Below, piece after piece: positions 2,542-31,132 of a stretch of DNA of 64,000 nucleotides. Source of the DNA: an uncultured Alphaproteobacteria bacterium (GTDB lineage Bacteria > Pseudomonadota > Alphaproteobacteria > UBA6615); assembly GCA_943787445.1 (NCBI GenBank), contig CALSML010000001.1:57408-121407 (forward strand). Direction: 5' to 3'. The notes beneath the pieces were generated by a model, which was given only the letters and a program-made list of their open reading frames with translations, ran no database searches and was not told where the DNA came from. Each line of letters opens with the position of its first letter. Position 1 is the stretch's first letter. Position numbers and translations under genes: made by a program.

Positions 2542-2559
2542 CGTTTCAGGGGAAGACGT

Positions 2560-3363: not shown

Positions 3364-3499
3364 TCGATTTCAGGCATTTACTTCACTGAAATCACGAAAA
3401 ATCCAACGGGTTCCCGGTTGATTTGAACCGGGAGCCATCCCATATTTGCATCACAGACTTGAAGTTTAAGCAGGGGAGCCCCGAAAGGGACACAACACC

Positions 3500-4246
3500 A
3501 TGGCGAACGAATTCAATCGCGAGTCGGTCATACAGGGCCGCACCGCATCCGACGCACAGATCGATGAGGGCCTCCGGTCCTATATGCTGCGTGTCTACAA
3601 CTACATGACCATTGGTCTCGTACTCACGGGCCTGACGGCCTATGTGGTCTCGAGCACACCGGCACTGTTGCAGCTGTTCTATGCACAGAACGCGCTGGGT
3701 CAGCTTCAGCCGACCATGCTGGCCTATGTGGCGATGTTCTCGCCATTCGCCTTCATACTGGCTCTGAGTTTTGGCATTCAGCGCATGAGCGCCTCAACGG
3801 CACAGCTCGTATTCTGGCTATTCGCGGCTGTCATGGGTCTGTCGATGTCCCACATCTTCCTGACCTTCACAGGAGCCAGCATCACACGGGTGTTTTTCAT
3901 CACGGCCTCCACATTCGCCGCAATGAGCCTGTATGGATACACCACAAAGCGTGATCTTTCGGGCCTGGGATCATTCCTTTTCATGGGACTGATCGGCATC
4001 ATTCTGGCGAGCATCGTGAATATTTTCATCGGTTCCACGGTGATGCAGTTCGCGATTTCCGTGATTGGTGTTCTGGTCTTCGTTGGTCTCACCGCCTACG
4101 ACACCCAGAAAATCAAGGAAATGTATGACGAGCTCGACGGGTCCGAAGTCGCCGGCAAAAAGGCGATCATGGGCGCATTGCGGCTCTATCTCGATTTCAT
4201 CAACCTGTTCATGATGCTGCTGCACCTGTTCGGCAATCGCGAATAG
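3500..4246 (+). CDS. yccA: Bax inhibitor-1/YccA family membrane protein (FtsH modulator family)
   Basis: The N-terminus (MANEFNRESV...DEGLRSYMLRVYNYMTIGLVLTGLTAYVV) and seven hydrophobic segments are typical of BI-1/YccA. A GGAG-type RBS lies upstream. Confidence 0.8.
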   Translation: MANEFNRESVIQGRTASDAQIDEGLRSYMLRVYNYMTIGLVLTGLTAYVVSSTPALLQLFYAQNALGQLQPTMLAYVAMFSPFAFILALSFGIQRMSASTAQLVFWLFAAVMGLSMSHIFLTFTGASITRVFFITASTFAAMSLYGYTTKRDLSGLGSFLFMGLIGIILASIVNIFIGSTVMQFAISVIGVLVFVGLTAYDTQKIKEMYDELDGSEVAGKKAIMGALRLYLDFINLFMMLLHLFGNRE

Positions 4247-4265
4247 ACGCACAAAATCACACACT

Positions 4266-4302
4266 ACCAAACGCCCGGGCCATGTCCCGGGCGTTTTCTT
4301 TT
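4266..4302 (+). terminator. Rho-independent terminator after the yccA-like gene
   Basis: Perfect GC-rich hairpin aaacgcccggg-ccatgt-cccgggcgttt followed by ttttcttttggg. Confidence 0.8.
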
Positions 4303-4352
4303 GGGCGCGCGCGCGTCAATATCCGTGTAAGAAACAAATATCGGAGGGAACC

Positions 4353-5117
4353 ATGTCCGGCCTGAAAGACAAGATCGTGATACTGACCGGTGCAAGCCGG
4401 GGTATTGGCGCCGCAGTAGCACGGGAAATGGCCCCCGATGGGCCACACCTCATTTTGTGCGCGCGCACAGCAGAAGCCTGTGAAGAAACCCAGGCCGCTG
4501 TCGAAGCCCTTGGGGCCACACCCGAATGCCACGGCTTCGAAGTCGCGGACACAGAAGTCACGAAAGCCTTCATCGATGACGTGGTGGCCCGCCATGGCCA
4601 TGTCGATGTGTTGATCAACAATGCCGGGCTGGGTTTCATGGGCTCCGTCCAGGACGTGCCACCGCCAGCCTATCATGAAGTCCTGCAGGTCAACGTGCTG
4701 GGGCCCTACAACCTGATCGCCGCAGTTCTGCCCCACATGACCGCGCGAGATTCCGGCACCATCATCAACGTGACAAGCGCACGCGCCTTCATCCCGGACC
4801 GGTACTACGCGGCCTATTGCTCTTCCAAGGCCGCCCTGCTTTCGATGACCCAGTGCCTGCACTACGATCTGGAAGATTCCGCGGTCCAGATATTCGCCCT
4901 GTCACCAGGTTTCACTCAGACCGACATGGTGGAAGCCATCTATTCCAACAGCGAATTCCGTGCCGCCGCCCTGACCCCCGATCAGGGGCAACCCCCTGAA
5001 CGTCCGGCCAAGGTTCTGGCCTGGCTGGCCCGGGAGGCCCCGGCTGATCTGGCTGGCCAGCACAACCAGATTCAGTTCAACGATCTGACCCGCCGCGCCG
5101 GGATCGAAAACGTCTAG
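4353..5117 (+). CDS. SDR family NAD(P)-dependent oxidoreductase
   Basis: N-terminal TGASRGIG cofactor motif, an NNAG motif, and a SxnY...K-type catalytic region. Confidence 0.85.
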   Translation: MSGLKDKIVILTGASRGIGAAVAREMAPDGPHLILCARTAEACEETQAAVEALGATPECHGFEVADTEVTKAFIDDVVARHGHVDVLINNAGLGFMGSVQDVPPPAYHEVLQVNVLGPYNLIAAVLPHMTARDSGTIINVTSARAFIPDRYYAAYCSSKAALLSMTQCLHYDLEDSAVQIFALSPGFTQTDMVEAIYSNSEFRAAALTPDQGQPPERPAKVLAWLAREAPADLAGQHNQIQFNDLTRRAGIENV

Positions 5118-5201
5118 CGACCCGAGACATGTCAGTTCTGTCATGAACCCGCGACGTTCTTTCGTCGACATGCTCGACCATCACCCGGGCAGTCTTCCGC
5201 C

Positions 5202-6332
5202 GTGCTGGCCGGAAAGGCGCTGCATCAGGCCTGTGTACTGATGCAGGCCGATGGCGGCGTGCTGTATCTGCTGCGTCACGAGCAGGGGAAAACTAGTCTC
5301 GTCCGGGCGGCTGCCCTGCCCGAATTAGCAGATCAGCCCGACAACATTCCGATCGACCGCCCAGCCATTTCGACAATCGTTGCCCAGACAGGTTCGACCT
5401 TGAAGTTCGATGATGCCACCGCCACCGAAGCGACGGCCATGATCGATCCGGATACGGATTTGCCCCCGGGCATGGAGTCAGGCGCGATTGCAGCCTTCGC
5501 CCTGACGAACCACGCCCGGGATGTGGTTGGCGTGGTGACCCTGAGCAACGATCTTTCCTCTGACCGCGCCTTTGCTCATGAATCCAAGGACCTGATCGCA
5601 CGCTTCAACCGGCTGGCCGGGGCCGCCGTGGAGCGCGCCGACCTGCTCGACCAGATCGGCCAGATTCGCTTTGACCCGACCGAGCGCAATGATCGCCTGC
5701 GCCGACAGGTCGAAAAACTGGCCTTCATCGAAGACATCGATGGCGTCCGCGGCGACGATGCCTTTCGCCTGGCAATTTCCATGCTCGCCCGCGCCGCGGA
5801 GATTTACGATGAAGGCACCGGCAATCATGTTTTCCGGGTGAACGAGTACAGCCACTTTCTGGGTCAGACCCTGGGGATGGATGCGAACTACTGCCACCAG
5901 CTGCGCTATTCGGCCCAGCTCCACGATGTGGGGAAAATCGGTGTCGCACCGGCCGTCCTGCGCAAGACCACCGCCCTCAATGCCGAAGAGCGCCGCGAAA
6001 TGGACAACCACACGGTCTATGGACACCGCATTCTCAGCCAGTCACCCCGTCTGGCGATGGCGGCCGAGATCGCTCTCAATCACCATGAAAAATGGGATGG
6101 CAGCGGCTATCCCGATGGCAAACGCGCCGACGAGATCCCGCTAGCAGCCCGCATCGTCCAGATCGCGGATATCTATGATGCGCTGCGGTCCCGGCGGCCC
6201 TACAAGCCATCCCTGGATCACGCCGAGGCCCGCAACATCATTCTGCATGGCGATGACCGGATCGACGTCGCCGGGCATTTCGACCCCCGGGTGGTCGAGG
6301 CCTTCGGCGACACCCATGAATCCTTCGACTAG
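5202..6332 (+). CDS. GAF domain / HD-GYP domain protein (putative c-di-GMP phosphodiesterase). GTG start.
   Basis: The C-terminal half has HDVGKIGV ... HHEKWDGSGYPDG, which is the HD-GYP signature. The N-terminal half is GAF-like. Confidence 0.75.
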   Translation: MLAGKALHQACVLMQADGGVLYLLRHEQGKTSLVRAAALPELADQPDNIPIDRPAISTIVAQTGSTLKFDDATATEATAMIDPDTDLPPGMESGAIAAFALTNHARDVVGVVTLSNDLSSDRAFAHESKDLIARFNRLAGAAVERADLLDQIGQIRFDPTERNDRLRRQVEKLAFIEDIDGVRGDDAFRLAISMLARAAEIYDEGTGNHVFRVNEYSHFLGQTLGMDANYCHQLRYSAQLHDVGKIGVAPAVLRKTTALNAEERREMDNHTVYGHRILSQSPRLAMAAEIALNHHEKWDGSGYPDGKRADEIPLAARIVQIADIYDALRSRRPYKPSLDHAEARNIILHGDDRIDVAGHFDPRVVEAFGDTHESFD

Positions 6333-6366
6333 ATCTGGTGCGACCTTCAGGACGCGTGACCGCCCC

Positions 6367-7419
6367 CTAATCTGTGGGTGACAGATTCGTGCCCACGCGT
6401 TTCTTCATCTCGCGCGGTTTGCGGTACACAGCCGAGGACCGCAGCACCGGCTCCCCATCGGCGTAGGAAATCGCCTCCACGAAATTTATCGTCCGGGTGC
6501 TCTTCACCAGACGCACATCGCATTCGACCCACTGGCCGGGATGGATCGGGGCCAGAAAATCCGCATCCAGATGGATCGTGGGCGTGAGCGCCACCACGCC
6601 GAGTTCGTAAAGCGCGGACTGGGCCATGGCCACATCCACGAAACTGGTCATCCAGCCGCCATGCACGACATTGCGGGGATTGAGGTGATGGGCCGCCACC
6701 CGGAAGCCGAACACCGCCTTCTTCTTCCCACACTTCACGAAGAGCGGGCCGTTGAGGCTGGTGAAGGGACTGGTGAAGGAGAATGGCTCGAACCCACGGG
6801 GCACCTTCACGGCGTTCTTCAGGCGGAACTCCATGTGGTCGAGACGGTCCGCACCCCAGAAGGTTTCTCCGTCCAGCACCATGAAGGGCGCGCCGAACAT
6901 ACCGTCACCGATCGCCCGGTCGAATGCCGCCGCCAGGGCTTTTTCTGCCTGCTTGTCGTTCTCGGCGGCCTTGATGTCTTTAATGGTCAACTGCACGCCC
7001 CGCGCCTTGCAGGCACTGGCGAGCTGGGTGGCCGTGCGAACTTCCTGTCCCGTGCCGAAATAGCGGTGATCGACGGCCTTTGCGAATTCCTTGGCCAGCT
7101 CCGGGTCCTTCCGGTTCAGGCGCCAGAAGACCAGCCGGTGCAGGGTTGCCCCATAAGGCGGCACTTTTGGCGGAAAGGGTGAGGCCACCGGCAGATTGTT
7201 CATCTCGCACAGGCGCGGCAGATCCTTTACATTGTGCGCGAACTTCGCGGCTTGATCGCGCGGGGAGATCACCTTGCGATGGGCCAGCACATCGGGCAAC
7301 GACACACAGTTCCACTCCACCTCCCGCCCCCAGCGTTTGGCGAGCGCTTCGATATTGTTCATCGCCACATAGGAATAGGCCGACACGAAATCGAAATAGA
7401 ACTTGATCGGGGTTGCCAT
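6367..7419 (-). CDS. Fusion protein: N-terminal DsbA-like 2-hydroxychromene-2-carboxylate isomerase domain plus C-terminal PaaI/hotdog thioesterase domain
   Basis: Begins MATPIKFYFDFVSAYSYV (HCCA isomerase/DsbA-like) with an RBS GGAG upstream. The C-terminus has HGGWMTSFVDVAM...PGQWVECDVRLVK (hotdog/PaaI-like). The start at 7419 was chosen over the upstream 7536 start. Confidence 0.65.
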   Translation of the reverse strand: MATPIKFYFDFVSAYSYVAMNNIEALAKRWGREVEWNCVSLPDVLAHRKVISPRDQAAKFAHNVKDLPRLCEMNNLPVASPFPPKVPPYGATLHRLVFWRLNRKDPELAKEFAKAVDHRYFGTGQEVRTATQLASACKARGVQLTIKDIKAAENDKQAEKALAAAFDRAIGDGMFGAPFMVLDGETFWGADRLDHMEFRLKNAVKVPRGFEPFSFTSPFTSLNGPLFVKCGKKKAVFGFRVAAHHLNPRNVVHGGWMTSFVDVAMAQSALYELGVVALTPTIHLDADFLAPIHPGQWVECDVRLVKSTRTINFVEAISYADGEPVLRSSAVYRKPREMKKRVGTNLSPTD

Positions 7420-7487
7420 GAAAATTCTCCAAAACCTGTATTCTGAAAGGCCTGTCTGTGCCGGGAGGCCGCCGAGCCGGAAGCTCT

Positions 7488-8642
7488 TCAGGCGTCCCGG
7501 TATTCGCTGATCTGAGGCTCGCGGCGCACCAGCCACCAGCCATATTGCTCGGGCCAGTCCGCAAATTCGGGGTCCGCACCCAGCTTGTGTGCGGCGTGCC
7601 GCCCCCAGTAGGGATCGAACAGGGCTTCGCGCCCGATCGCGACCAGATCGGCCTGCCCATCAGCGACAATCGTTTCGGCATGTTCGGCGTGGATCACCAG
7701 CCCGACCACCATGGTCGTGACATCCGCCTCTGTTCCGATACGCGAAGAATAGGCGGTGCGGAAGCCGAGTGGTGTTTTGCCCTGAGCGGCTGTGGCCGGC
7801 CCGGAGATCCCGCTCGACGAGCAATCGATCACATCAACACCGCGCGCCTTGAGTTCACCGACCAGAACGACGGAATCCTCAAGCTGCCAGCCCTCGGTCA
7901 CGCCGTCGGTGTCGACCGAGGAAATGCGCACGAAGAGCGGCTTGTCATCCGGCCAGACCGCGCGCACCTTCTCCGCCGTTTCCAGCGCAAAACGCATACG
8001 ACCGGCCCGGTCGCCGCCATAGGCATCATTGCGGTGGTTCGAAGTCGGCGAGAGGAAAGAATGAGAGAGATAGCCATGGGCGGAATGAATCTCGAGAACC
8101 TCAAACCCCGCATCGAGTGCGTGACCCGCGGCCGTGGCGAAGCGATCCTGAATGGCACCAATGTCCTCGATGGTGAGTTCACCGGGCATGATCCAGCCCT
8201 CGCGCACCGGTTCCGGACTGGGCGCAACAATCTCCCAGGGCATCTCGCCCCGTGCCGTGTCGCTGTCATCCATCGCCCCATTGCCGTGCCAGGGGCGCTG
8301 CATGCTCGCCTTGCGACCGGCATGGGCAATCTGGATCGCCGGCAGGGCGCCAAATCGGGCAATCGATGCCGTAACAGGCTTCAGCGCCCGGGCATGATCA
8401 GCCGACCAGATACCCAGATCGCCATGGGTAATCTTGCCACGCGGCTCCACCGCCGCAGCTTCGGTGAAGACGGCAGCCGCTCCGCCCATGGCGTATTGGC
8501 TGAGATGGATCATGTGCCAGTCACTGGCCAGACCGTCATCGGCGGAATAGGTGCACATGGGCGAAACCACGATGCGGTTCTTGAACGTGACACCACTGAC
8601 GGTCAGTGGAGAAAACAACGCGCTTGTCTGATGATCGGCCAC
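7488..8642 (-). CDS. NADH:flavin oxidoreductase, Old Yellow Enzyme family
   Basis: FSPLTVSGVTFKNRIVVSPMCTYSADDG...HMIHLSQYAMGGAA is typical of the OYE/YqjM N-terminus. A TIM-barrel-length ORF. Confidence 0.85.
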   Translation of the reverse strand: MADHQTSALFSPLTVSGVTFKNRIVVSPMCTYSADDGLASDWHMIHLSQYAMGGAAAVFTEAAAVEPRGKITHGDLGIWSADHARALKPVTASIARFGALPAIQIAHAGRKASMQRPWHGNGAMDDSDTARGEMPWEIVAPSPEPVREGWIMPGELTIEDIGAIQDRFATAAGHALDAGFEVLEIHSAHGYLSHSFLSPTSNHRNDAYGGDRAGRMRFALETAEKVRAVWPDDKPLFVRISSVDTDGVTEGWQLEDSVVLVGELKARGVDVIDCSSSGISGPATAAQGKTPLGFRTAYSSRIGTEADVTTMVVGLVIHAEHAETIVADGQADLVAIGREALFDPYWGRHAAHKLGADPEFADWPEQYGWWLVRREPQISEYRDA

Positions 8643-12643: not shown

Positions 12644-13516
12644 ATGACCGGAAATCTCCGCGGCATCATCTGGATGGCCACCACGGGCATTCTGTTCGTG
12701 GCCGTCACCGGGATCGTGCGCCATCTGGGCACGGATATGAGCCCGGTCCAGGCCGCGTTCATCCGCTACCTGTTCGGTCTTCTGCTGCTTTTGCCGGTCT
12801 TTCTGCGCATGGGCAGCCTGCGACGGCCAGCCTCGGTGGTCGGGCTGCATGCCTCGCGCGGGGTTATCCACGGCGTTGGGGTCATGCTCTGGTTCTTTGC
12901 CATGGCCAATATCCCCATCGCGGAAGTGACCGCGCTGGGGTTCACCGCACCGATTTTCACGACAGTCGGCGCCGCATTGTTTCTGGGGGAACGCTTGCGG
13001 CTGTACCGGATCGGCGCGGTGCTCATGGGGTTCGGCGGCGCTCTGGTGGTGCTGCAACCGGGGTTTCAGGAGATCAATATCGGCTCCATCGCCCAGCTCA
13101 CCGCCGCCCCCCTCTTTGCCGCGTCATTCCTAATCGCCAAGCGCCTGACCAAGGTCGAGTCGAGCACAGCGATCGTGGCCTATCTCTCGGTCTTCGTAAC
13201 CCTGGTCCTGCTGGCGCCGGCCATCTATGTCTGGCGGACACCAACCGTGATCGAACTGATCTGGTTGTTTGCAACCGCGGCTCTGGCCACGCTCGGCCAT
13301 TACACCCTGACCCAGGCCTTCCGGGCGGCGGACATCACCGTGACCCAGCCCATCCAGTTTCTGCAACTAGTCTGGGCCACCATTCTGGGGCTGGCCGTGT
13401 TCGGCGAACAGCCAGAAATCTGGACCTGGGTAGGTGGCGGCATGATTGTCGCAAGCGCAACCTTCATCGCCCATCGGGAAGGAAAGTGCCGCAAGGACCG
13501 GGACGCGCCGATCTAG
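12644..13516 (+). CDS. DMT superfamily transporter (EamA-like)
   Basis: Ten TM segments with a duplicated EamA architecture. Confidence 0.75.
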   Translation: MTGNLRGIIWMATTGILFVAVTGIVRHLGTDMSPVQAAFIRYLFGLLLLLPVFLRMGSLRRPASVVGLHASRGVIHGVGVMLWFFAMANIPIAEVTALGFTAPIFTTVGAALFLGERLRLYRIGAVLMGFGGALVVLQPGFQEINIGSIAQLTAAPLFAASFLIAKRLTKVESSTAIVAYLSVFVTLVLLAPAIYVWRTPTVIELIWLFATAALATLGHYTLTQAFRAADITVTQPIQFLQLVWATILGLAVFGEQPEIWTWVGGGMIVASATFIAHREGKCRKDRDAPI

Positions 13517-13533
13517 CGGAAGACGACAGCCGC

Positions 13534-13938
13534 ATGTCAATTCACAGTATGGTTCTGCAACGGCGCGGACCCATGTATGGTGGTCGCGTGTCACACACCT
13601 CTGCGGAGACTCCGTTGAACTTCGTTTTTGATGTCGGCTTCTTTGCCGCAGCCTTTGTCCCCACCTTTCTCGTCAGTCGGATCGTGTTTCGACTGACCAA
13701 GTCATGGGAAGGCCACTGGCAACGCCTCGTCCTCGCCAATCTCGCATCCGGCATCATCTGCGTTCTGATCTTTCTGGTCTCCGGTGTATGGTTTGCCGCC
13801 GGATTCGATTTTCTCTGGCTTTACGGCATCACGAATTTCGCGCTCGCACAGCTCATCTGGCTGGCCGTTGATGTCTATTCCGACTGGATCAACAAGCGCC
13901 TGACGACCGAAACCAATTCCCCAAGCAACCAGAACTGA
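13534..13938 (+). CDS. Hypothetical membrane protein
   Basis: Hydrophobic ORF with no recognised motif. The start is uncertain. Confidence 0.35.
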   Translation: MSIHSMVLQRRGPMYGGRVSHTSAETPLNFVFDVGFFAAAFVPTFLVSRIVFRLTKSWEGHWQRLVLANLASGIICVLIFLVSGVWFAAGFDFLWLYGITNFALAQLIWLAVDVYSDWINKRLTTETNSPSNQN

Positions 13939-13952
13939 AACCCGGAAACATC

Positions 13953-14462
13953 ATGGGTAGCGAAGGCTCGGGCGTGGGCAACGCCGATATCGATATTGGA
14001 ACATTCTGGAACGCGGTGGGTCAGCGGGCTGTGGGCGCGACCATCGTGACCGCGCGCGGCAGCGCCGGTCCGGCTGGATTTCTGGGCCTTTCAGCCACCC
14101 ATGTCTGCGCCGATCCACCCACCATGCTGGTCTCCATCGATGCGAAGACCTCCGCGCTCGGCGCCATTCGGGATTCACGACATTTCGCGATCAACTATCT
14201 GCCCCGCGGCACGGAGGACGTGGTCGACCTGTTCTCCGGCAAACGTGACATCAAGGGGCCCGCCCGTTTCGAGACGGGCCTGTGGGGCTATCTCGCGACC
14301 GGGGCGCCGGTCTTCAACGGCGCTGTCGGCGTGATGGACTGCATTCTGGAAGAAACCCTCGAGCGGCACGGGACCATCCTTGCGCTCGGCCGCGTGGTCG
14401 CCATCTCCGGTGACCGGGATGCGGACCCGCTGGTGTATTTCCGGGGTGGGTTTCTGGACTGA
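13953..14462 (+). CDS. Flavin reductase family protein (FMN-binding split barrel), probable reductase partner of the adjacent LLM monooxygenase
   Basis: FWNAVGQRAVGATIVTA...LSATHVCADPPTMLVSI...NYLPRGTEDVVDLFSG is typical of the HpaC/flavin reductase-like domain. Confidence 0.8.
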   Translation: MGSEGSGVGNADIDIGTFWNAVGQRAVGATIVTARGSAGPAGFLGLSATHVCADPPTMLVSIDAKTSALGAIRDSRHFAINYLPRGTEDVVDLFSGKRDIKGPARFETGLWGYLATGAPVFNGAVGVMDCILEETLERHGTILALGRVVAISGDRDADPLVYFRGGFLD

Positions 14463-14471
14463 CCTGAAACG

Positions 14472-15821
14472 CTACTCGGCTGCCTGATCGCGCTTCGCCG
14501 CAAAGAACTGGTTCCCCGGGCGGGGCAGCCCAAGATTTTCCCGCAGGGTCTTGCCTTCATATTCGCGGCGCAGCAGCCCGCGACGCTGAAGTTCGGGTAC
14601 CACCCGATCGACGAACAGATCCAGCCCTTCGGGCAGAAACGGGAACATGATCGTGAAACCGTCACTGGCGCGGCTGTCGATCCATTCTTCCATTTCACCG
14701 GCAATGGTTTCGGCCGTCCCGACCAGTGCAAGCCCGGAATAGCCCCCCATGCGCTGGGCCAGCTCCCGCACGGTCAGATTCTCCTGTTCGGCCATGCGGA
14801 TCGCCCGTTCACGCCCACTCTTCGAGGCATTACTCTCGGGAATACCGGGCAAAGGGCCATCGAGATCGAATTTCGATGCATCCGTGCCCAGCTGAATCGA
14901 CAGGGATGCAATTGCACTATCCAGATGCACTTTGGAATCCAGCACAGCGCGTTTCTCCCGCGCTTCCGCGACGGTATCGCCGACCACAACAAGGCAGGCG
15001 GGCATAATTTTCAGATGCTCCGGATCCCGTCCAAGCGCTGTCATCCGCCCCTTCACATCCGCATAGAAGGCACGACCATCCTCGAGCGTGCGTTGGGCTG
15101 CAAAAATTGCATCGGCAGTTTCCGCCGCGAGTTGTCGCCCCGCCTCGGACCCGCCGGCCTGAACAATCAGGGGCCAGCCCTGCACGGGCCGTGCGATATG
15201 CAACGGGCCACGCACGGAAAAATACTCGCCCTTGTGGTCCAAGGTGTGGAGTTTCTCAGGATCAAAGAAAACCCCGGAGTCCACGTCGCGGATAAAGGCA
15301 TCATCCGCCCAGCTATCCCACAGGCCGGTCACCACATCGTAAAACTCCCGCGCACGCCGGTACCGGTCAGCATGATCGAGATGCTCGTCCAGACCGAAAT
15401 TCTTCGCTGCGTCCGGGTTCGAAGTTGTGACGATGTTCCAGCCGGCGCGCCCCTCCGAAATATGATCGAGAGAGGCAAACCGCCGCGCCACATGAAACGG
15501 ATCATCGAAAGAGGTTGATCCTGTGGCAATCAGGCCCAGTTTTTCCGTGGCCATGGACAGCGCCGACAACAGCGTGAAGGGTTCGAAGGATGTTGCCGTC
15601 GCACTGCGCTTGAGCGCATCCATCGGCATATTCAGCAAGGCAAGGTGATCGGCCATGAAAAAGGCATCAAACCGCGCAGCCTCAAGCCGCTGGGCAAACT
15701 TCACGATGGCCCGGAAGTTGAAATTCGCATCGGGCGTGCCCCCGGGGTAGCGCCAGGCCCCGGTGTGAATGCTGATCGGTCGCATGAATGCCGCAAGATG
15801 AAGCTGTAGTGAAGCCATCAT
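14472..15821 (-). CDS. LLM-class flavin-dependent monooxygenase, NtaA/SnaA/DszA/SoxA family
   Basis: N-terminal LHLAAFMRP...HTGAWRYPGG, and a length of about 449 aa that is typical of NtaA/DszA. Confidence 0.8.
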   Translation of the reverse strand: MMASLQLHLAAFMRPISIHTGAWRYPGGTPDANFNFRAIVKFAQRLEAARFDAFFMADHLALLNMPMDALKRSATATSFEPFTLLSALSMATEKLGLIATGSTSFDDPFHVARRFASLDHISEGRAGWNIVTTSNPDAAKNFGLDEHLDHADRYRRAREFYDVVTGLWDSWADDAFIRDVDSGVFFDPEKLHTLDHKGEYFSVRGPLHIARPVQGWPLIVQAGGSEAGRQLAAETADAIFAAQRTLEDGRAFYADVKGRMTALGRDPEHLKIMPACLVVVGDTVAEAREKRAVLDSKVHLDSAIASLSIQLGTDASKFDLDGPLPGIPESNASKSGRERAIRMAEQENLTVRELAQRMGGYSGLALVGTAETIAGEMEEWIDSRASDGFTIMFPFLPEGLDLFVDRVVPELQRRGLLRREYEGKTLRENLGLPRPGNQFFAAKRDQAAE

Positions 15822-15878
15822 GATTGCCTAACTGTTCTCATCACCTGCCATCCGATGTCACACAGTCCCCGCCGCCGA

Positions 15879-18194
15879 TCAACCCAGAGGTCCGAAATCC
15901 GGCGGCGACACCCGCCGATGGGAGACCGCTTCATAGGCCGAAGCAATTCGCAGCAAGCTGTCTTCCGTGCCCGGCTCGGAACGGAACACCAGTGAGAACG
16001 GCAGTCCCGGCGCTGCCAATGGAGTGGGTTCACGCGACGGCGCGGAGACATACTTCGTCCCGTCTTCACTCAATTTGTGGACGGGGTCATACGCCGTCGA
16101 GACATAGCCGGCCGGAACCAGAATCTCCGTCAGCCCTGCATTCGGGCCATAAAGGCTCTCGGGGCGAAGATTGTTGGATGTGTCGTGCTGCAAAGGTCCA
16201 CCGATGATTCCCGGAGGCCAGGGGCTGTGCAGGCGCACGAAGGCGTCAAGATTGTTCTCGATCAACACCATCATATCCACGCGGCGCAGCAACTCGCGCA
16301 GCATGATCCGCTCATTCACGCCCTGCCGCCCATCCAGCGCATTGCGCGGATCATCGGTCTCTTCCCAGTTCTTGAAGGCCGAACGCTGATCATCACCCCA
16401 GAACTTCGAACGCGCATTGAGCATGGCCCAGTTGTCGAGCGCCTCATGAAAACCGGCCGCTTTCCAGTCTTCGGCCCGCCGCATCAGATACTGGCTGATG
16501 TGGAAACGGAAGGTGGTGGCGAGTTCCTGATGCTGAATGGTCGCAATATCGAAATTGGCCGGCGGTTCGATGGTCCCCTCGGCTAGCGCAACACAGTAGT
16601 CGATGGAATCCATCGTGCCCTTGCCGAAGGTCTTGCCCGGCTGGAACTCCGTCGGGCGAATGGCTTCCTCGAATTCCTTGAACAGGGGTGTCCCGTCCGG
16701 CGCCAGCCGAAAGAGAACATCAGGCATGAAGACCGGCAGAAGCTTTGCGAGCGCCCGCCGGAAATCCGGCTTCAACTGTTCCAGATTCGGATCCGGCGTC
16801 CAGAGCAGATCGCCGGACTCGACCAGTGTGGCAGCCAGCTGCCCGCCCAGAACATCCTTGATCTCGGCGGTAGCGGCATCAACGATGGGTTTCTCGGTGA
16901 GGGAATCCTTCGGATAGACCATCGATTCCCGCACCACACCCAGACGAATGCCCTTGAGAGCGCCTGTCGAGGCATCCCTGGACAGATGCGAGGCATAGGA
17001 CGTGTCGAGAACGGAAGAGCGCGGCACCGTCGTATAGGGATCGCGCGGATCGTAATAGCCGTTCTCGGGATCCTTGAGCGCATCGAGAATCTTCGCGCAA
17101 TCAGGCAGCGAACGGCCATGAATGCCCGACCGGTCGCAATAGATATCCGCACCAATAGCGCCGCCATCAAACCCGAGCATCGATTTGTGAGGCAGGATCA
17201 ACGCCACCGAATTGTGGTTGGAGGGCCCCCGACAGGACGCCCGGGTCTCCTCACCCAGACTCGCCATCACCAGATTGGTGCTGACCGAAAGCGCCGAACC
17301 GGAACTCGATCCCAACGAGGCCGCGCGGGTGGTGTCATAGGGGTTGGACGGATTGCCGCCCCAGGTGGCCCGCTGATAGCCCAGTGTCGACGGCAGGACC
17401 TTGTCGGGATGGTTGCGTCCGCCGGGATCGCCAGCCCGGCCGTTATATTCGGTGTTCACGGCCTTGGCGAAAATGATCGCGCCCTTCTTGCGCAACTGAT
17501 CAACCAGAACATGATCCCGCGCAGGGAAATCATTGTCATAGGCCGCATCCGCACCGCCGGTGGACCGCATGTCCATGGTGTCGAAGGGGTCCTTGAAGGA
17601 GAAGGTGACCCCGTACATCGGCAAGGCTTCCAGATCGGGCGCGGTGCCATATTCTGCATCCAGTTCCGCCGCCCGTTCCAGCGCATCCGGGAACTGACGG
17701 AACATTTCGCAGACCGGCGGTGCGCCGGCGGGCAGCGGTCCTTCAGACGGGTGCTTATCGAATTCCCCCCAGCAGGTCACCGAACGTTCGCCACGAATGT
17801 TGAGGGTGGACAGGGCATTGACCTGCCCGGCCTTGGGGATACCCGCGATCATGCCGAACTGTTGTTCGACATCCGGTTTGGACGCTGTCGCCTCCATGCG
17901 ACCGTATTCCAGTGGCGGGCCCTTGTACTTGTCCAGATCAGGCAAAACGTCCGAAACGGGAATGGTCTCGGTCGGGAATTTCAGCGGCGCACCGGCGCGC
18001 ACAACCCCAGTGGATTCGGGAACCGGCTTGCCGTCCTCGGTCACCAGCATGCTGGACACGCCGTTATAGGCCCGGGCCCGGTCGATATATTGCTGCACCA
18101 CAGTCACCAGCGTGGTCTTTCCGGCGCGGATGGCCGTGTGCAGGTCGTCGATCGAAGCCTCGACGACGTCAAATTTGTCCGAATCCGTTCCCAT
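15879..18194 (-). CDS. Amidase signature (AS) family protein, unusually long (~770 aa)
   Basis: Core lysine (FSFKDPFD) and the LGSSSGSALSV Ser-cisSer motif. There is an N-terminal insertion of about 120 aa and a long C-terminal extension relative to typical 450-500 aa amidases. Confidence 0.75.
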   Translation of the reverse strand: MGTDSDKFDVVEASIDDLHTAIRAGKTTLVTVVQQYIDRARAYNGVSSMLVTEDGKPVPESTGVVRAGAPLKFPTETIPVSDVLPDLDKYKGPPLEYGRMEATASKPDVEQQFGMIAGIPKAGQVNALSTLNIRGERSVTCWGEFDKHPSEGPLPAGAPPVCEMFRQFPDALERAAELDAEYGTAPDLEALPMYGVTFSFKDPFDTMDMRSTGGADAAYDNDFPARDHVLVDQLRKKGAIIFAKAVNTEYNGRAGDPGGRNHPDKVLPSTLGYQRATWGGNPSNPYDTTRAASLGSSSGSALSVSTNLVMASLGEETRASCRGPSNHNSVALILPHKSMLGFDGGAIGADIYCDRSGIHGRSLPDCAKILDALKDPENGYYDPRDPYTTVPRSSVLDTSYASHLSRDASTGALKGIRLGVVRESMVYPKDSLTEKPIVDAATAEIKDVLGGQLAATLVESGDLLWTPDPNLEQLKPDFRRALAKLLPVFMPDVLFRLAPDGTPLFKEFEEAIRPTEFQPGKTFGKGTMDSIDYCVALAEGTIEPPANFDIATIQHQELATTFRFHISQYLMRRAEDWKAAGFHEALDNWAMLNARSKFWGDDQRSAFKNWEETDDPRNALDGRQGVNERIMLRELLRRVDMMVLIENNLDAFVRLHSPWPPGIIGGPLQHDTSNNLRPESLYGPNAGLTEILVPAGYVSTAYDPVHKLSEDGTKYVSAPSREPTPLAAPGLPFSLVFRSEPGTEDSLLRIASAYEAVSHRRVSPPDFGPLG

Positions 18195-18277
18195 GACATC
18201 CCCCAATTTTGATTTGAACCGATGATGTCTGGACCGGGGCAAAAAATCCAGTCATGCGGGATGCATTTGCCGCTTTA

Positions 18278-18746: not shown

Positions 18747-19394
18747 TCAGTCAGGCGTGATCGGCAGCGCGCAACCAACGACGGAATCGCGGGTGATCAG
18801 CGCGGCGAGTTCGTCTTCACTCAGACCTTCGGTCCCGGCAGGACGCATGGGCATGATCACGTAACGCAGATCCGCATTGCTGTCGTGGACCGCAATATCG
18901 ACGGAGTCCGGAATCTCAACACCGAACTCGCGCAACACCTTGCGCGGCTCGCGCACCGCCCGTGAACGATAGGCCTTGCTGACATAGAAGGCCGGCGGTT
19001 CGCCAAGCAAGGAGCGCGGATAACAGGAGCACAATGTGCACACGACCATATTGTGTCGCTCGGGCGTGTTCTCGATGGTGACCAGCGCTGCTTCGGTGGC
19101 TTCGATCCCCAGTTCCGCAGCGGCCGCCTTGGTGTCGGTCAGCATGCGTTCCTTGTAGGCGGGATCGACCCAGGCCCGGGCGATCATCCGGGCGGCCTGA
19201 TGTGGACTGCCGCGCTCGTTGAATTCCATGCGCGCGCGAATTTCATCCGCGGTCATGACCCCCTGTTCGATGAGCAGGCTCTTCAGCGCGAGAAAGCGCG
19301 CCTCCCCCTCGGTGAGTTCAAGGTCATCATCCTCGCGGGTGGGCGCGTGGTCGTCATGATCGTGATCATGATTGTGGTCGTCATTGTGCATCAT
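18747..19394 (-). CDS. scnC: Nitrile hydratase alpha-like / thiocyanate hydrolase gamma-like subunit (Co-type CTLCSC motif) with His/Asp-rich N-terminus
   Basis: [15 protein letters not shown] is the NHase-family metal-binding motif, and the Thr marks it as the cobalt type. The N-terminus is [30 protein letters not shown]. The ATGA overlap with the upstream gene indicates translational coupling. Confidence 0.75.
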
Positions 19395-19696
19395 GCGTCC
19401 TCCCCGGCTGGAGCCAGCCAATGGTCATAGATTTCGATTTCCAGGACGTCCCCCGGGGCGCCGTCATAGTCGGGCCAGATATCATCCTGGCGGAACTGCA
19501 CCCGATAGAGCGGGATCGGCGGCAACCCCCAGCGGCCATAGGCCTTGTCCTCGGGATTCTCGAACATACCGCAGAAACGCTCGATGGTGCCGGTCTTATG
19601 ACGAATATAAGTGGGGGTGCGCACATGGCCCGGCTTGCCGATATCGAGGATACGCACCCGGTCACCCACGCGATAGTTCGCGGCTGGCTCAGACAT
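19391..19696 (-). CDS. scnA: NHase beta C-terminal-half homolog (thiocyanate hydrolase alpha-like subunit)
   Basis: YRVGDRVRILD...HVRTPTYIRHKTGTIERF...LYRVQF...VLEIEIYDHWL matches the C-terminal domain of NHase beta subunits. Its start overlaps the stop of the upstream gene (ATGTCTGA). Confidence 0.7.
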   Translation of the reverse strand: MSEPAANYRVGDRVRILDIGKPGHVRTPTYIRHKTGTIERFCGMFENPEDKAYGRWGLPPIPLYRVQFRQDDIWPDYDGAPGDVLEIEIYDHWLAPAGEDA

Positions 19697-20006
19697 GGTC
19701 CCGTGTCCCCGCCGCCAGAATTTCCTGTGCGCGCTTGTCGAAGGCATCAGCGTCCACCACGCCCTTTTCGATCAGCAACCGGATCATCCCGTCAAGGCGC
19801 CGACCGTAAAAGGTCGAGTTGGCGTAATAATCCGCCGGCATCTCCTCGACCGTCCGTCGGAACTCATCGGTGACGACCACACCCTTCACCTGCAACAAAT
19901 TGAAGGCAGCAATCATCTGCTTTTCCCAGAACAGCTGGTCGCGGTCTTCCTGGGGTACGGCCCCGGCCGGTTCACCGCCAATATCGGTTACGAGCTTGTC
20001 CACCAT
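19689..20006 (-). CDS. scnB: NHase beta N-terminal-half homolog (thiocyanate hydrolase beta-like subunit)
   Basis: DIGGEPAGAVPQEDRDQLFWEKQMIAAFNLL...TDEFRRTVEEMPADYYANSTFYGRRLDGMIRLLIEKGV matches the N-terminal domain of NHase beta. Confidence 0.7.
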   Translation of the reverse strand: MVDKLVTDIGGEPAGAVPQEDRDQLFWEKQMIAAFNLLQVKGVVVTDEFRRTVEEMPADYYANSTFYGRRLDGMIRLLIEKGVVDADAFDKRAQEILAAGTRDHV

Positions 20007-20323: not shown

Positions 20324-21769
20324 CTAAAGGCCGGCCTGGGTGATGAACTTGGTGTTCAGATAAGCATCGATGGCTTCCGAGCCGCCTTCCGAGCCATAGC
20401 CGGAATCCTTGACCCCGCCGAACGGCGTTTCGATCAACCCGATCCCGTGATGGTTGATGGAAACCATCCCGCTCTCGAAGGCCGAGCCGATGGCTTCGGC
20501 GGTCTTGACGGATTTGGTATAGGCATAGGCTGCCAGCCCGTAATCGAGACGATTGGCTTCAGCCACAACCGCATCGAAATCCGAGAAGGACGAGATCGGC
20601 GCGACCGGGCCAAACGGCTCTTCGTTCATGATCCGCGCATCCAGCGGCACATCGGTCATCACCGTCGGCTCGAAGAAATAGCCCTTGTTGCCCTTACGCT
20701 TGCCGCCGGTCTGCAGCGTCGCACCCTTGCCCACGGCATCGGAGACAAAGCCCTCGATTGCATCGATCCGGCGGTCATGGGCCAGCGGGCCCATCTTGTT
20801 GTCCGGGTCCATACCATCGCCCACCGGCAGGGTGGCGGCGAATTCAGTGAAGCCTTCCACGAAGCGGTCATAGTGCTTTTCGTGCACCAAGAAGCGGGTC
20901 GGGGACACGCAGACCTGTCCGGCATTGCGGAACTTGTTGGCGGTTAGCACCTTGAGTGCGACCTCCACATCGGCATCCTCGAACACGATGGCCGGCGAAT
21001 GGCCGCCCAGCTCCATGGTCACACGCTTCATATGCGCACCGGCCAGTGCAGCCAGCTGCTTGCCGACCGCCGTGGAGCCCGTGAAGGTCACCTTGCGGAT
21101 GGTGCGATGGGGAATGAGGTATTCGGAGATTTCGGCGGGAACGCCATAGACCAGATTGACCACACCATCGGGCAGTCCGGCATCCACGAAACACCGGACC
21201 AGTGCCGCGCAACTCGCCGGGGTCTCTTCCGGGCCCTTGAGGATGATCGAGCAGCCGGCTGCAACAGCGCCCGAAAGCTTGCGCACGGCCTGATTGATCG
21301 GGAAGTTCCACGGCGTGAAGGCTGCGACCGGGCCGACCGGCTCTTTCACGACCATTTGGGTCACGCCGCCCATGCGTGCCGGGATCACCCAGCCATAGGC
21401 CCGGCGGGCCTCTTCAGCGAACCAGTCGATGATGTCGGCCCCGAACAGGGTCTCGATCTTGGCTTCGCCCAGCGGCTTGCCCTGTTCCATGGTCATCATG
21501 GCGCCAATTTCGTCGGCGCGTTCACGGACCAGATTGGCGGCCTTACGCATGACGTTGTAGCGCTCCATGGCCGAGACCTCTTTCCAGACGCGGAACCCGG
21601 CTTCCGCGGCTTCCAGCGCGGCATCCAGATCGGGGATGCGGGCATGGGCCACATTGCCGATCGGCTCTTCCGTCGCCGGGTTGAGCACGTCGATGGTTTC
21701 ACCGGCGGCCGCCGGCATCCACTTGCCGGCAATATGGAGTTCGGTGTTCGGGTATGCGTTGGTCATTGC
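20324..21769 (-). CDS. NAD(P)-dependent aldehyde dehydrogenase family protein
   Basis: ALDH family N-terminus ([29 protein letters not shown]) and a 481 aa length. RBS AGGGAAG upstream of MTNAYP. Confidence 0.85.
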
Positions 21770-21875
21770 GGTCTTCCCTGAGTAAGTCGTCTCTGTTTGG
21801 ATTGGGCGCACTATGCCACAGCCGGACGCAAGACAAGAGTCCGACCGCAAGCGAATTCACCCGCGTGACTGGGCC

Positions 21876-26617: not shown

Positions 26618-26693
26618 TGGTGCCGCCTGCAGGATTCGAACCTGCGACCCCCGCATTACGAATGCGATGCTCTACCAACTGAGCTAAGGCGGC
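26618..26693 (-). tRNA. tRNA-Thr (anticodon CGT), 76 nt including encoded CCA
   Basis: Reverse complement GCCGCCTTAGCTCAGTTGGTAGAGCATCGCATTCGTAATGCGGGGGTCGCAGGTTCGAATCCTGCAGGCGGCACCA folds as a cloverleaf. The acceptor is GCCGCCT/AGGCGGC, the anticodon loop is TTCGTAA, and the T-arm is GCAGG-TTCGAAT-CCTGC. Confidence 0.9.
26636..26662. repeat. Left copy of 27-bp perfect direct repeat TCGAACCTGCGACCCCCGCATTACGAA (inside tRNA-Thr, anticodon stem to T-loop). Putative att core.
   Basis: Exact match to 31133..31159. Confidence 0.8.
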
Positions 26694-27111
26694 GCCGATT
26701 TGCGAGGCCTTACCTATGTAAGGCCGTCGATTGGGTCAAGCGATTTGCGTGTCGGCCGGACTGAAGTTGCCCAAAGCCTTATTCACCAACATTTCCCGGT
26801 CGGAATTGCCGTCAGAGACCATAGCGATTTAAGGGTCAAATTTTTGGTTTTTTCTGCTTGTTCCACATCCTTGGTTGATGTTGATCCCCGTATTATACGC
26901 TCACCCGAATCCGATGTGAATCGACTAGTCAGTGGAACAGGATTGGAACAAGGGTTTTAGGGTCAGGAGAAAATTGTCGCTGTGACACGGTTCCATCTCA
27001 GGACGTCACGACAACCCCCACCCCGGAGGGACAAAAATCGACCCCCTGCCGAATATATATATTGGAAGATGGCCCGGATAAATTTTAGGCCAGAGTAACC
27101 AGAGTTCCCGT

Positions 27112-27756
27112 TTAGTGCCTCAGGCTCTCACACGCGACACCGTCACGATCACCATCAAGTCGATGAGGATCACCGGGCTTGGCTGCCTCGAAGAAGCTCT
27201 GAGCTTCTTGCCACGTCTGAAAATCTCCACAGTCTTTGTCGCGAGGCATTTGGCCCGGTTTGGAATTTCCTCGCCTACCTCGCCGCCATTGCTCTGGAGC
27301 GACAAAACTTCCTGACCAAATGCCGAGTCCTGATTTCTGTGCTTCCATCTCTTCGATGACGTAGTCGGTCGAGTAGCGCCGGTAGGCTATCGCCCAACCG
27401 GTAGCAACCATCTCGCGGTTAAGTTCAACTCCGAGCGGTCCCCCTATCGAGCAGACAGCAATAATTCGACCGTAACGATCTTTGTCGATCTCTGAGCAAT
27501 CGACCCAATGGTTCTCAACCAAGGCAGCCAGAGCAGCTGTTGCCTCGAAACCACAACGCCAATCCTGACCATTGCGCGAACAAACTTGATCGCTCTCAGG
27601 CGCATCAATTCCGTGAAGGCGAACAGCGACCGAACCAAATTTGAGGGAGTCTCCGTCCACGACACGCGGTTTGCCGCTGATGGCCTCAGCGCCTTGAACG
27701 CCAATAGCGATCACGCTGATTGCAGTCGCGCAAAATAGTTTGAAAAGGTGAACCAT
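27112..27756 (-). CDS. Secreted thermonuclease (staphylococcal nuclease-like) with C-terminal Excalibur calcium-binding domain
   Basis: Signal peptide. RVVDGDSLKF...VRLHGIDAPE...DRYGRIIAVC...GWAIAYRRY is SNase-like. The C-terminal DKDCGDFQTWQEAQSFFEAAKPGDPHRLDGDRDGVACESL is an Excalibur motif. Confidence 0.8.
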   Translation of the reverse strand: MVHLFKLFCATAISVIAIGVQGAEAISGKPRVVDGDSLKFGSVAVRLHGIDAPESDQVCSRNGQDWRCGFEATAALAALVENHWVDCSEIDKDRYGRIIAVCSIGGPLGVELNREMVATGWAIAYRRYSTDYVIEEMEAQKSGLGIWSGSFVAPEQWRRGRRGNSKPGQMPRDKDCGDFQTWQEAQSFFEAAKPGDPHRLDGDRDGVACESLRH

Positions 27757-27797
27757 GGCTTTCAGGGACTCATCGTTCTGACCGACCCGACGTCCTA

Positions 27798-28103
27798 TCA
27801 GTCACTCTTCGTACAGTGGCTTTGCCACAACGTCGATAGCTGGGTCATCTCGGTCAGCGCAGCCCTGTAACGCTGGTCCATAATGTCGTAATGAGTTTGC
27901 AAATCCTCATTTGCAACATTGGGCTGACGCATATCGCGCATCAGAGAAATTAAGACGGTCATATGCGATGAGGTTTTCCGCATCTGCGACGCCAACGTCG
28001 GGCACATCTGCGGGTCGATAAGAGGTACCTCGTCACTTGCAGATGATCTCCCTCCCATGAGCAGCAGTCCCGAAACGCAGAGGGTGGAAATTAAGAGCCT
28101 CAT
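27798..28103 (-). CDS. Hypothetical secreted small protein
   Basis: N-terminal signal peptide MRLLISTLCVSGLLLMGG. No recognised motif. Located within the island, upstream on the same strand as the nuclease. Confidence 0.4.
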   Translation of the reverse strand: MRLLISTLCVSGLLLMGGRSSASDEVPLIDPQMCPTLASQMRKTSSHMTVLISLMRDMRQPNVANEDLQTHYDIMDQRYRAALTEMTQLSTLWQSHCTKSD

Positions 28104-28359
28104 AACAAATTCCTATTAGATGAATCCTTCTACTTTATAGACGACAACCAGAGACCTCTCAGCTGGGCCCAGGAGAGCCATACAAAGGCTTTGTGACTGT
28201 ATCTAAGGAAGGTAACTGACGAAAGACCAGACCTCTTACAGAGCTATAATTTTGCCTATTTATCCCAGCGTTTCCAGTGCTTTGCGGGTATTCTCTCCAG
28301 AATACGAAAAGGCCCCCGGAGATTTGTCTCACGAGGGCCTGATCATATTTCTTATAGGG

Positions 28360-28674
28360 TTAACCTGCAGCGGTATACGCACTTGCTGCTGCTTGAGCCG
28401 CCGAAACTACTTTCGGCATATCAATTTCCTCGAGGTAGTCAGCCTCTTCGAAAGCACCACTCGCCTTAATTGCAAGAACAAGACCCATCGCCGTTTCATG
28501 GTCTTTGACCTCTACGCGGACAACGACGTCGTATTTCCCTCGAACGAAGGCGATGTAGTCAGATGTGCCACCAACCGCATCCATCAGTTTTTTGATCGCA
28601 GCTTCTCGATCTGAGCCACCAATCAGACCCTTCAGCGCATGCGGGGCATATTTTCCTAGAAGTAATGCTTTCAT
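28360..28674 (-). CDS. GYD domain-containing protein
   Basis: About 104 aa, MKALLLGKY...GGTSDYIAFVRGKYDVVVRVEV...AMGLVLAIKASGA pattern consistent with the GYD family. A probable terminator hairpin lies downstream (about 28303..28345). Confidence 0.55.
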   Translation of the reverse strand: MKALLLGKYAPHALKGLIGGSDREAAIKKLMDAVGGTSDYIAFVRGKYDVVVRVEVKDHETAMGLVLAIKASGAFEEADYLEEIDMPKVVSAAQAAASAYTAAG

Positions 28675-29151
28675 AATGTCCTCTCTGAATTATCTACCTA
28701 CGGATAACTATCTACACCTAACTCGTGAACGAAAGAGAACCTAATTTTTAACAAAGGCACTCCGTTTGAGGCTGAACGTAACGCTACAGCATCCTCAGGT
28801 CGTATGGTCGAGAAGCTGATCGACTCGTACCCAATGTCGGTCGCCTCAGGCAGCCTCGCTGTGCCTCACAATGCACTGGCAACTCTGGAGCGTCTGCAAA
28901 ATCTTGAACCTGCAAGACGGTTTGAGGTTCGTAACCCTGATCCTGATGAGATAGACCGACAGATCGCTCACTACCTTGATGTCATTGGGACTGGCCAAAA
29001 CAAAAGGCCCCCGGACAGGATGCATTTCAGTGAGCCTTAGATTGTGACCAATTCCGAACGTCACACCAAAAGTCTGTTACAGACTTATAAATATTTTGAT
29101 TTGGTTATTTTATGGAACTCCATTGGGCAGGTTCCATATTGCAACTCAGCA

Positions 29152-29415
29152 TCAAGTGTTCTTGACCACCTTAATCCCCTTTCCTCCCCGACCACGAGAC
29201 TTATAAATCGTATAGCCCTTTGCGCCTAAGTTGAGTGATTCAACGCCTTCGGCCGAAGAGAGTATACTTGCAATTTTCTCTGCAACTTTATCCGACTTTT
29301 CTAACTTAGAATTGGCCTTCCGCCATTCATCAAATGCCTTTTGTCCTAATTCGTCGCCTATTGATTTCTTCAAAGCGTTTAATTTGCGAATTTCGCCTTT
29401 GGTCAAATCTGACAT
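29152..29415 (-). CDS. Hypothetical Lys-rich small protein
   Basis: 87 aa ORF with an AT-rich promoter-like region upstream. No recognised motif. Confidence 0.3.
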   Translation of the reverse strand: MSDLTKGEIRKLNALKKSIGDELGQKAFDEWRKANSKLEKSDKVAEKIASILSSAEGVESLNLGAKGYTIYKSRGRGGKGIKVVKNT

Positions 29416-29576
29416 ATCTACCTTCTAGTTGAATTTAAAAAATAAGATTATAGGACTTTTTTTGATGAGATTCAAAATAAAAATTTTGACCAACAAAGAT
29501 GTTAGTCCCATTTTGTTGGATTACTAATCATGTTTAGTTTTTTCATCAGGTATCAAACACGGGAGTCCAAAATAAT

Positions 29577-29954: not shown

Positions 29955-30127
29955 CGAGAAGGTTCGGCAGTCAAGTAGTCTTGGCGTCGCCGGTTCAAAA
30001 ATGACCTTCAAAAGTTTGTCATTAAGCTAACCCAGCATTCGGGCAAGGTCTTCCGGTCTCAGCTGGACGTACCGCTGAAGCATCCTGAGGTCCTTGTGGC
30101 CGGTTATCGCTGCCACCTCCATCACGC

Positions 30128-31012: not shown

Positions 31013-31132
31013 AGGAGTGGTACAAGCAAATACCCCTATACATTTTCCATCTGTCGGCGAACGGGGGTCGCCGGGAAAAATGCTTAGAAATCAAAACTTA
31101 ATGGCTGAGAAAGTGCATTTGGTCTGCGTGAC

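Follow-up and report, generated by a model that had tools for sequence, protein, structure and literature searches.

A predicted amidase-signature hydrolase of about 770 residues with a conserved insertion, paired with an NtaA/DmoA-family monooxygenase in one alphaproteobacterial clade

Amidase-signature (AS) amidases are mainstays of biocatalysis and of the release of amide nitrogen. We analysed a stretch of 64,000 nucleotides (the window; positions 57,408 to 121,407 of contig CALSML010000001.1, assembly GCA_943787445.1) from an uncultured alphaproteobacterium, in which the gene of a long AS amidase lies beside genes for an NtaA/DmoA-family flavin-dependent monooxygenase and a flavin reductase (Table 1). 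What is new here, judging by the sequence of the amidase and of its relatives, is an undescribed AS variant of about 770 residues, distinguished by an insertion of about 110 residues that is highly conserved. Our best explanation, to which we give as a whole a probability of roughly 0.6, is that the 771-residue protein would be a catalytically competent, cytoplasmic AS hydrolase of the Pam/Tse8-like branch, with a beta-rich insertion and an enlarged helical region, acting on an imported amide and coupled to the monooxygenase in a clade-specific manner. The cluster around the amidase is an ordinary, lineage-specific catabolic arrangement, and the amidase subfamily, rather than the cluster, is the part worth pursuing.

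Homology searches place the long amidase in a compact, widespread and strongly conserved AS subfamily, uncharacterised so far. Its best 120 matches among 5.8 billion proteins were all 739–790 residues long and 75–100% identical to it, and those that bore any name were called just “amidase” or “amidase family protein”. At the level of 50% identity the library contained no more than about eight clusters of full-length members, with identities to the window amidase of 62% (P0121), 46% (P0125 and P0127), 44% (P0128 and P0131) and 37–38% (P0172 and P0242). The subfamily is without a representative in Pfam, NCBIfam or the PDB, and no NCBIfam model reached its cut-off: PRK08137 scored 106.9 vs. 534 bits and PRK06828 97.3 vs. 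494 bits, so far below threshold that the protein is claimed by no curated model and failed the score test for a Pam orthologue. A preliminary description of this DNA, made from the letters alone, was right in regarding the amidase as unusually long; to our knowledge, characterised AS amidases have roughly 400–650 residues. The same description allowed that the extra segments might belong to a known AS subgroup of like length, of which no characterised example turned up, and literature searches brought up no characterised AS enzyme built in this way.

A scan limited to one genome per species returned 80 loci, in 73 of which the amidase was called, from SAR116, Rhodospirillales, Hyphomicrobiales, Polynucleobacter, Limnohabitans, Dehalococcoidia, Nitrospinota, Methylomirabilota and Terriglobia, with identities of 58–95%. 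The long subfamily spans the open ocean (SAR116, Nitrospinota), fresh water (Polynucleobacter, Limnohabitans) and soil, its members being 58–76% identical across phyla. The window amidase is 71–73% identical to Dehalococcoidia and Nitrospinota proteins and 75% to a SAR116 protein, and a Xanthobacteraceae amidase is closer to a Dehalococcoidia protein (79%) than to the SAR116 protein (68%). These cross-phylum identities suggest strong constraint, and the gene has probably moved between phyla by transfer, bearing in mind that the taxon labels of metagenome-assembled genomes are not fully reliable. The substrate of the long amidase, once found, could point to an amide that is common in natural organic matter, as well as to a new determinant of AS specificity.

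The catalytic centre appears complete. The Pfam model PF01425 matched with 84.8 bits (cut-off 27) over residues 168–428 only, and the triad was located at K201 (FSFKD), cis-S296 (LGSSSGS) and S320 (RASCRGP), three residues that are invariant in an alignment of 45 homologues reaching down to 34% identity. The AS signature consists of a Ser-cisSer-Lys triad and a Gly/Ser-rich GGSS(S/G)GS motif (PMC11732141), and the Lys/cisSer-Ser signature read earlier in this protein is thus confirmed. The triad motifs align with those of Pam, with LGSSSGS here and CGSSSGS in Pam. By analogy with the family, Ser320 would attack the amide carbonyl, cis-Ser296 and Lys201 would relay a proton, and ammonia or an amine would leave together with a carboxylate.

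Both sequence and predicted structure point to Pam and Tse8 as the closest solved relatives. Single-sequence searches retrieved them with E about 1e-14, and the family profile matched Pam (5ac3) with E=1e-42 and Tse8 with E=2e-34, the alignable parts being residues 8–45 (N-terminal helix), about 161–440 (core) and 726–770 (C-terminus). The final AlphaFold model (pLDDT 82, pTM 0.89) was obtained by adding seven homologues of 34–62% identity to an alignment of 38 close homologues, which alone gave a pLDDT of 57.6 with the core below 50. Searched with Foldseek against the PDB, the model returned AS enzymes only among the 50 matches listed, led by Tse8 (E=3e-21, TM 0.66 normalised to Tse8) and Pam (TM 0.69). 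Pam of Stenotrophomonas maltophilia (PDB 1m21/1m22, 5ac3), the closest by sequence, shares the GSSSGS motif and the triad spacing, but has about 500 residues and lacks both insertion 1, described below, and about 130 residues of the middle region. Tse8 of Pseudomonas aeruginosa (PDB 6te4/6yhv), the best structural match, also has an enlarged second half (595 residues in total); it is, however, a type VI secretion system (T6SS) effector without insertion 1, a secreted toxin acting by transamidosome binding, whereas the window gene lies outside any T6SS context and its family keeps the triad invariant.

Insertion 1 follows the N-terminal helices and is folded into seven strands in the AlphaFold model. 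It has no counterpart in Pam or Tse8 in single-sequence or profile alignments, and the N-terminal insertion claimed in the preliminary description at about 120 residues is indeed present, at about 110 residues (approximately positions 46–165). In distant homologues its identity is 61–68%, against 42–49% in the catalytic core (P0121, the closest of them, is excepted, with 66% in the core); being more conserved than the core, it is therefore functional and not filler, and such conservation suggests that it may help to bind the substrate or a partner. Across the 45 aligned homologues Q124, N132, R134, G135, R137 and P159 are invariant, and C141 and C162 nearly so. A search of PDB sequences with insertion 1 alone gave nothing credible; a 29-residue match to a designed pentatricopeptide repeat protein, in which no stretch exceeded the threshold, was treated as spurious. 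It is conceivable, although we consider it rather doubtful, that insertion 1 is a dedicated module for substrate or partner recognition defining a new, widespread AS class, which would act on a common natural amide of aquatic and soil dissolved organic matter, for instance in nitrogen scavenging. On this view the periplasmic and cytoplasmic branches of the class would go back to a Pam-like ancestor, and gene transfer would have carried them from one phylum to another.

The second region of extra length is internal. A C-terminal extension of about 250 residues had been proposed, and this part of the preliminary description has to be abandoned: residues 726–770 align with the C-termini of Pam (459–497) and Tse8 (548–592), so that the last 45 residues or so are the normal end of such enzymes, and the model terminates in the usual strands and helix. 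The AS fold runs over the whole chain, C-terminus included, as indicated by the pTM of the model, by Foldseek and by the C-terminal alignment; the tail was mistaken for an extension because of the limited span of the Pfam match. The additional residues lie within positions 440–728 approximately, about 130 more than in Pam and about 70 more than in Tse8. This middle region is the least conserved part of the protein (23–33% identity in most of the distant homologues, and 27–33% in those with 42–49% in the core), and a search of PDB sequences with it alone gave no match.

The N-terminus of the window amidase, MGTDSDKFDVVE, is hydrophilic, and no signal peptide was recognised in it (judged from the sequence, without a predictor). 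Pam carries a signal peptide and is secreted, and in this the window amidase differs from it. Hydrophobic N-terminal leaders were found only in distant members of the long subfamily (P0121–P0242), which are therefore probably secreted, and in none of the window's clade. Tandem arrays of distant, signal-peptide-bearing relatives were also observed, four in a row on the metagenome contig L164 (positions 1–8301; 764, 649, 828 and 766 aa) and two distant long-amidase relatives at L165 (384–6326), which suggests diversification by duplication.

Gene neighbourhoods across the family, as far as they recur, suggest uptake as their theme. In SAR116 the amidase is the last gene of an ATP-binding cassette (ABC) operon with a binding protein distantly like trehalose/maltose-binding proteins, two ORFs (open reading frames) of about 300 aa taken to be putative permeases and a MalK-type ATPase, with an S15 peptidase nearby. 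An SBP_bac_5 binding protein follows the amidase in Dehalococcoidia, and in Betaproteobacteria TctC receptors, 2Fe-2S/molybdopterin enzymes and GFO/IDH/MocA oxidoreductases are found near it. Other loci have housekeeping neighbours; a lytic transglycosylase, Tex and an FMO-like gene were also seen near the amidase. Since the gene stands alone or after uptake systems across the family, its substrate would most likely be a small, polar, natural amide imported from outside the cell.

Neighbouring genes were compared in a crude way, by taking the longest ORFs (minimum 90 aa) and grouping them with BLAST. An NtaA-type gene follows the amidase in only 3 of the 73 amidase loci, namely the window, L001 (amidase 95% identical) and L002 (90%). 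The reverse search from the monooxygenase returned 80 metagenome loci, with a relative called in 66; the amidase is present, directly upstream, in three of these (L081–L083, monooxygenase at least 87% identical) and absent from the other 63, all with a monooxygenase at most 79% identical. L161, whose amidase is 100% identical, has the pair as well, which brings the contigs carrying it to seven (the window, L001, L002, L081, L082, L083 and L161), with the amidase directly upstream of the monooxygenase in each. The flanks of the pair vary, upstream between MetY, a MetY remnant, or an AraC regulator with a cupin, and downstream between the flavin reductase (the window, L001, L083 and L161) and other genes (L002, L081 and L082). 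In the window the two genes are on the same strand, 57 bp apart, with no terminator-like site between them. The co-occurrence of the amidase with NtaA-like genes across genomes, put forward in the preliminary description as something to look for, is thus confined to one shallow clade, and the pairing is a trait of this clade, not of the amidase family. The pair is modestly supported as a two-gene unit of one marine alphaproteobacterial clade, while a family-wide link between amidase and monooxygenase is clearly contradicted.

The monooxygenase belongs to the NtaA/DmoA family. It scored 553.5 bits on TIGR03860 (cut-off 279.7) over residues 9–429 of 449, and its best solved relatives were YtnJ/MoxC (1yw1/6ask, 358 bits), NtaA (3sdo, 342 bits) and DszA (5tlc, 319 bits), with DmoA at 236 bits. 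NtaA does not stand out from YtnJ and DszA as a relative, so that the substrate of the monooxygenase cannot be inferred from these scores, and the contexts of its own orthologues are mixed and unrelated. A reductase of family PF01613, whose best NCBIfam match was RutF (77 bits, under its cut-off), lies 9 bp from the stop codon of the monooxygenase, in convergent orientation. Clear membership in TIGR03860 and an adjoining reductase gene recall the two-component systems of this family (NtaA/NtaB, YtnJ/MoxC, DszA, EmoA, DmoA and LadA), and the assignment of an NtaA/DszA-like two-component monooxygenase, made already from the letters, can be retained. The window differs from those systems in that the reductase is convergent and apparently belongs to another operon: on the plus strand an EamA transporter gene (12644–13516) and a 150-aa ORF without a Pfam match (13486–13938) precede it, and it appears to be transcribed with them as the last gene, not with the monooxygenase. 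EamA, small ORF and reductase recur together in L001 and L161, and EamA and reductase in L083.

In the pair clade the amidase and the monooxygenase would probably be co-transcribed and may act on one compound, amide hydrolysis being combined with FMNH2-dependent oxidative cleavage (FMNH2, reduced flavin mononucleotide) of the product or of a precursor, and the neighbouring reductase would supply FMNH2. Several observations weigh against this explanation. The pair clade is shallow (amidases at least 84% identical), and the adjacency could reflect common descent of the gene order; the reductase is encoded on the other strand, seemingly in the EamA operon, and is missing from three of the seven pair contigs; a partner gene common to the family was sought among the 80 amidase loci, and the neighbours were too varied, none being consistent; and no member of the subfamily has so far been characterised.

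Oxygenases of other classes also occur near long amidases. In the Dehalococcoidia loci (L022–L077) a different luciferase-like gene of 350 aa lies two genes downstream of the amidase, and in L012, L029 and L079 an FMO-like gene of 549 aa lies upstream of it on the opposite strand. Massive expansions of such flavin monooxygenase paralogues have been described in the SAR202 group of Dehalococcoidia (PMC5395668, PMC6946804), making a chance adjacency of the luciferase-like gene likely, and the luciferase-like and FMO-like neighbours count as few independent events. That three flavin monooxygenase classes are found near the long amidase in separate lineages may be a coincidence in oxygenase-rich genomes or a recurring theme.

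A minus-strand run upstream of the amidase, comprising a MetY remnant, a putative nitrile hydratase and an aldehyde dehydrogenase (Table 1), was overlooked in the preliminary description. The nitrile hydratase alpha subunit has a VCTLCSC metal site and a His/Asp-rich N-terminus and scored 245 bits on TIGR01323, just under the cut-off of 249.85; its identification as a thiocyanate hydrolase gamma subunit was rejected (201 bits vs. a cut-off of 291). The beta subunit is split into an N-terminal half (19689–20006, 105 aa) and a C-terminal half (19391–19747, about 101–118 aa), which match positions 4–103 and 125–226 of TIGR03888, respectively. This layout is similar to that of the toyocamycin nitrile hydratase ToyJKL and of thiocyanate hydrolase, which have three ORFs with a split beta subunit. 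The aldehyde dehydrogenase, under the cut-off on TIGR01780 (481 bits), heads the same-strand run and is also found upstream in L001 and L002; upstream of it lie AhpD/CMD-like, enolase-superfamily and TauD-like genes.

These genes raise the possibility that the amidase acts after the nitrile hydratase in a two-enzyme route, from nitrile to amide to acid and ammonia, with the monooxygenase incidental or acting later, a reading that we consider unlikely. The amidases known to partner nitrile hydratases have about 500–520 residues and no such insertions, and the window amidase is about 250 residues longer than those of the classical operons. The alpha subunit and the beta halves do lie on the same strand 0.5–1.8 kb upstream of the amidase with short gaps, L001 has the same arrangement, and such an order, with the genes of a cobalt-type alpha subunit and of the beta halves preceding that of an AS amidase in one orientation, resembles the operons of Rhodococcus and P. 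chlororaphis; clusters of nitrile hydratase and AS amidase genes are classical in Rhodococcus and Pseudomonas (PMC11732141). However, the link is not kept among the close relatives of the window amidase: among the pair contigs the hydratase was found in the window and L001 only and is therefore an accessory neighbour, the alpha subunit being absent near the amidase in L002, L081 and L083. It is also absent from about 70 other amidase loci, except L016, where it lies nine genes away, and in L001 glutathione S-transferase (GST) and MetY genes stand between hydratase and amidase.

Organosulfur salvage was considered as another explanation of the cluster and appears quite improbable. In that case the monooxygenase and reductase, joined by MetY in the contigs that keep the gene intact, would form a unit cleaving C-S and not C-N bonds, as DszA, DmoA and YtnJ do, with the amidase taking an N-acyl or amide group off the sulfur compound. 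YtnJ/MoxC of B. subtilis being the best solved relative of the monooxygenase, ahead of NtaA and DszA, is consistent with this, as are the GST gene in L001 and L002 and a MetY-type sulfhydrylase that immediately precedes the amidase in L001, L081 and L161 and lies two ORFs ahead of it in L002. In the window, on the contrary, MetY is a remnant from which two deletions have removed the first 11 codons or so and the whole middle, whereas it is intact in L001 (449 aa) and L161; one of the deletions also took out the GST (beta-etherase-like) gene carried by L001 and L002, and the remnant reflects either decay of the gene at the level of the strain or an error of assembly. MetY is absent altogether in L083, and the survival of the amidase–monooxygenase pair without it weakens the organosulfur interpretation. 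Furthermore, the DmoA score was much lower than those of the other relatives, literature searches gave no open-access paper on YtnJ/CmoJ function in support of the sulfur role of YtnJ, and the TauD-like gene matches best, and weakly, betaine or phosphonate dioxygenases.

The preliminary description itself suggested a degradative route for a xenobiotic or natural product containing an amide or amine, with nitrilotriacetate-like aminocarboxylates and lactams as candidate substrates; we considered this in the form of a dedicated pathway in which amidase and oxygenase would have co-evolved to degrade such a xenobiotic. The same-strand adjacency kept in seven contigs and the membership of the monooxygenase in the NtaA/DmoA family agree with it, but the pairing is missing from about 70 other amidase loci and 63 other monooxygenase loci, no transposase or plasmid signature was found next to the pair, and an amidase 58–76% identical across phyla of open ocean, fresh water and soil is unlike a recently recruited xenobiotic enzyme. 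Conservation in oligotrophic marine, freshwater and soil lineages suggests a natural substrate instead, and the xenobiotic route, unsupported here, seems very improbable. Of the earlier interpretation, the gene identities and the unusual length of the amidase are kept, while the xenobiotic role is not. Finally, that the long amidase could be a non-catalytic AS-fold binding protein like Tse8, its top Foldseek match, is hardly credible given the Lys/cis-Ser/Ser triad and GSSSGS motif invariant across the family and the lack of T6SS or immunity genes nearby in the window.

The features on which the hydrolase explanation is built, and their neighbours, are listed in Table 1. The set of reductase, monooxygenase and amidase was recovered where the preliminary description had placed it, ORFs and Pfam matches being in agreement, and each of the three has hundreds of close relatives in the database, so that they are real genes and not chance ORFs. 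The amidase ORF as called mechanically (15879–18242, minus strand, 787 aa) does exist, extending upstream to a TTG at 18242; the start was nonetheless moved to the ATG at 18194, where the homologues begin and upstream of which a GGGGGA sits at 5 nt, and this is likely the real start, giving 771 and not 787 residues. A search of the cluster against Rfam found no riboswitch or other RNA, and a scan of the cluster for promoters and terminators found sites no more common than in shuffled sequence.

Table 1. Features of the amidase cluster and of its upstream neighbours (positions in the window).
Feature	Position	Strand	Evidence or remarks
Flavin reductase, 169 aa	13953..14462	+	PF01613 Flavin_Reduct, E=1e-26
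NtaA/DmoA-family FMNH2-dependent luciferase-like monooxygenase, 449 aa	14472..15821	-	Bac_luciferase, E=3e-51; TIGR03860
Amidase-signature (AS) hydrolase (predicted), 771 aa	15879..18194	-	PF01425 Amidase, E=9e-24
Enlarged middle region of amidase, residues 450–728	16011..16847	-	Mostly helical in model
Catalytic triad stretch of amidase	17235..17594	-	Codons K201 17592–17594, cis-S296 17307–17309, S320 17235–17237
Insertion 1 of amidase, residues 46–165	17700..18059	-	Beta-rich; NIRGERS motif; conserved pair Cys141/Cys162
MetY-like O-acetylhomoserine sulfhydrylase remnant, 166 aa	18278..18778	-	PF01053 matches two ends only
Putative nitrile hydratase alpha subunit, cobalt type	18747..19421	-	PF02979, E=2e-75; likely start 19394
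Putative nitrile hydratase beta subunit, split in two ORFs	19391..20006	-	PF21006, E=1e-13; PF02211, E=8e-21; one Pfam half-domain per ORF
Membrane ORF, 81 aa	20040..20285	-	
Aldehyde dehydrogenase, succinate-semialdehyde-dehydrogenase-like	20324..21850	-	PF00171, E=2e-160

Two stretches of low GC content were observed elsewhere in the window. A tRNA-Thr(CGT) gene at 26618–26693 (minus strand) and a 48-nt partial copy of it, 85% identical, at 31124–31171 bracket about 4.5 kb with 45–56% GC, whose cargo includes a secreted-type nuclease (SNase and Excalibur domains, 27112–27756) and a phage-type integrase (30128–31012); positions 26618–31171 probably represent a small integrative element for which the tRNA gene served as insertion site. 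The second stretch, at 41798–44900 (about 47–52% GC vs. about 61% around it), carries a TctCBA tripartite tricarboxylate transporter operon, adjoined by a gene of the molybdopterin xanthine dehydrogenase family (39391–41895).

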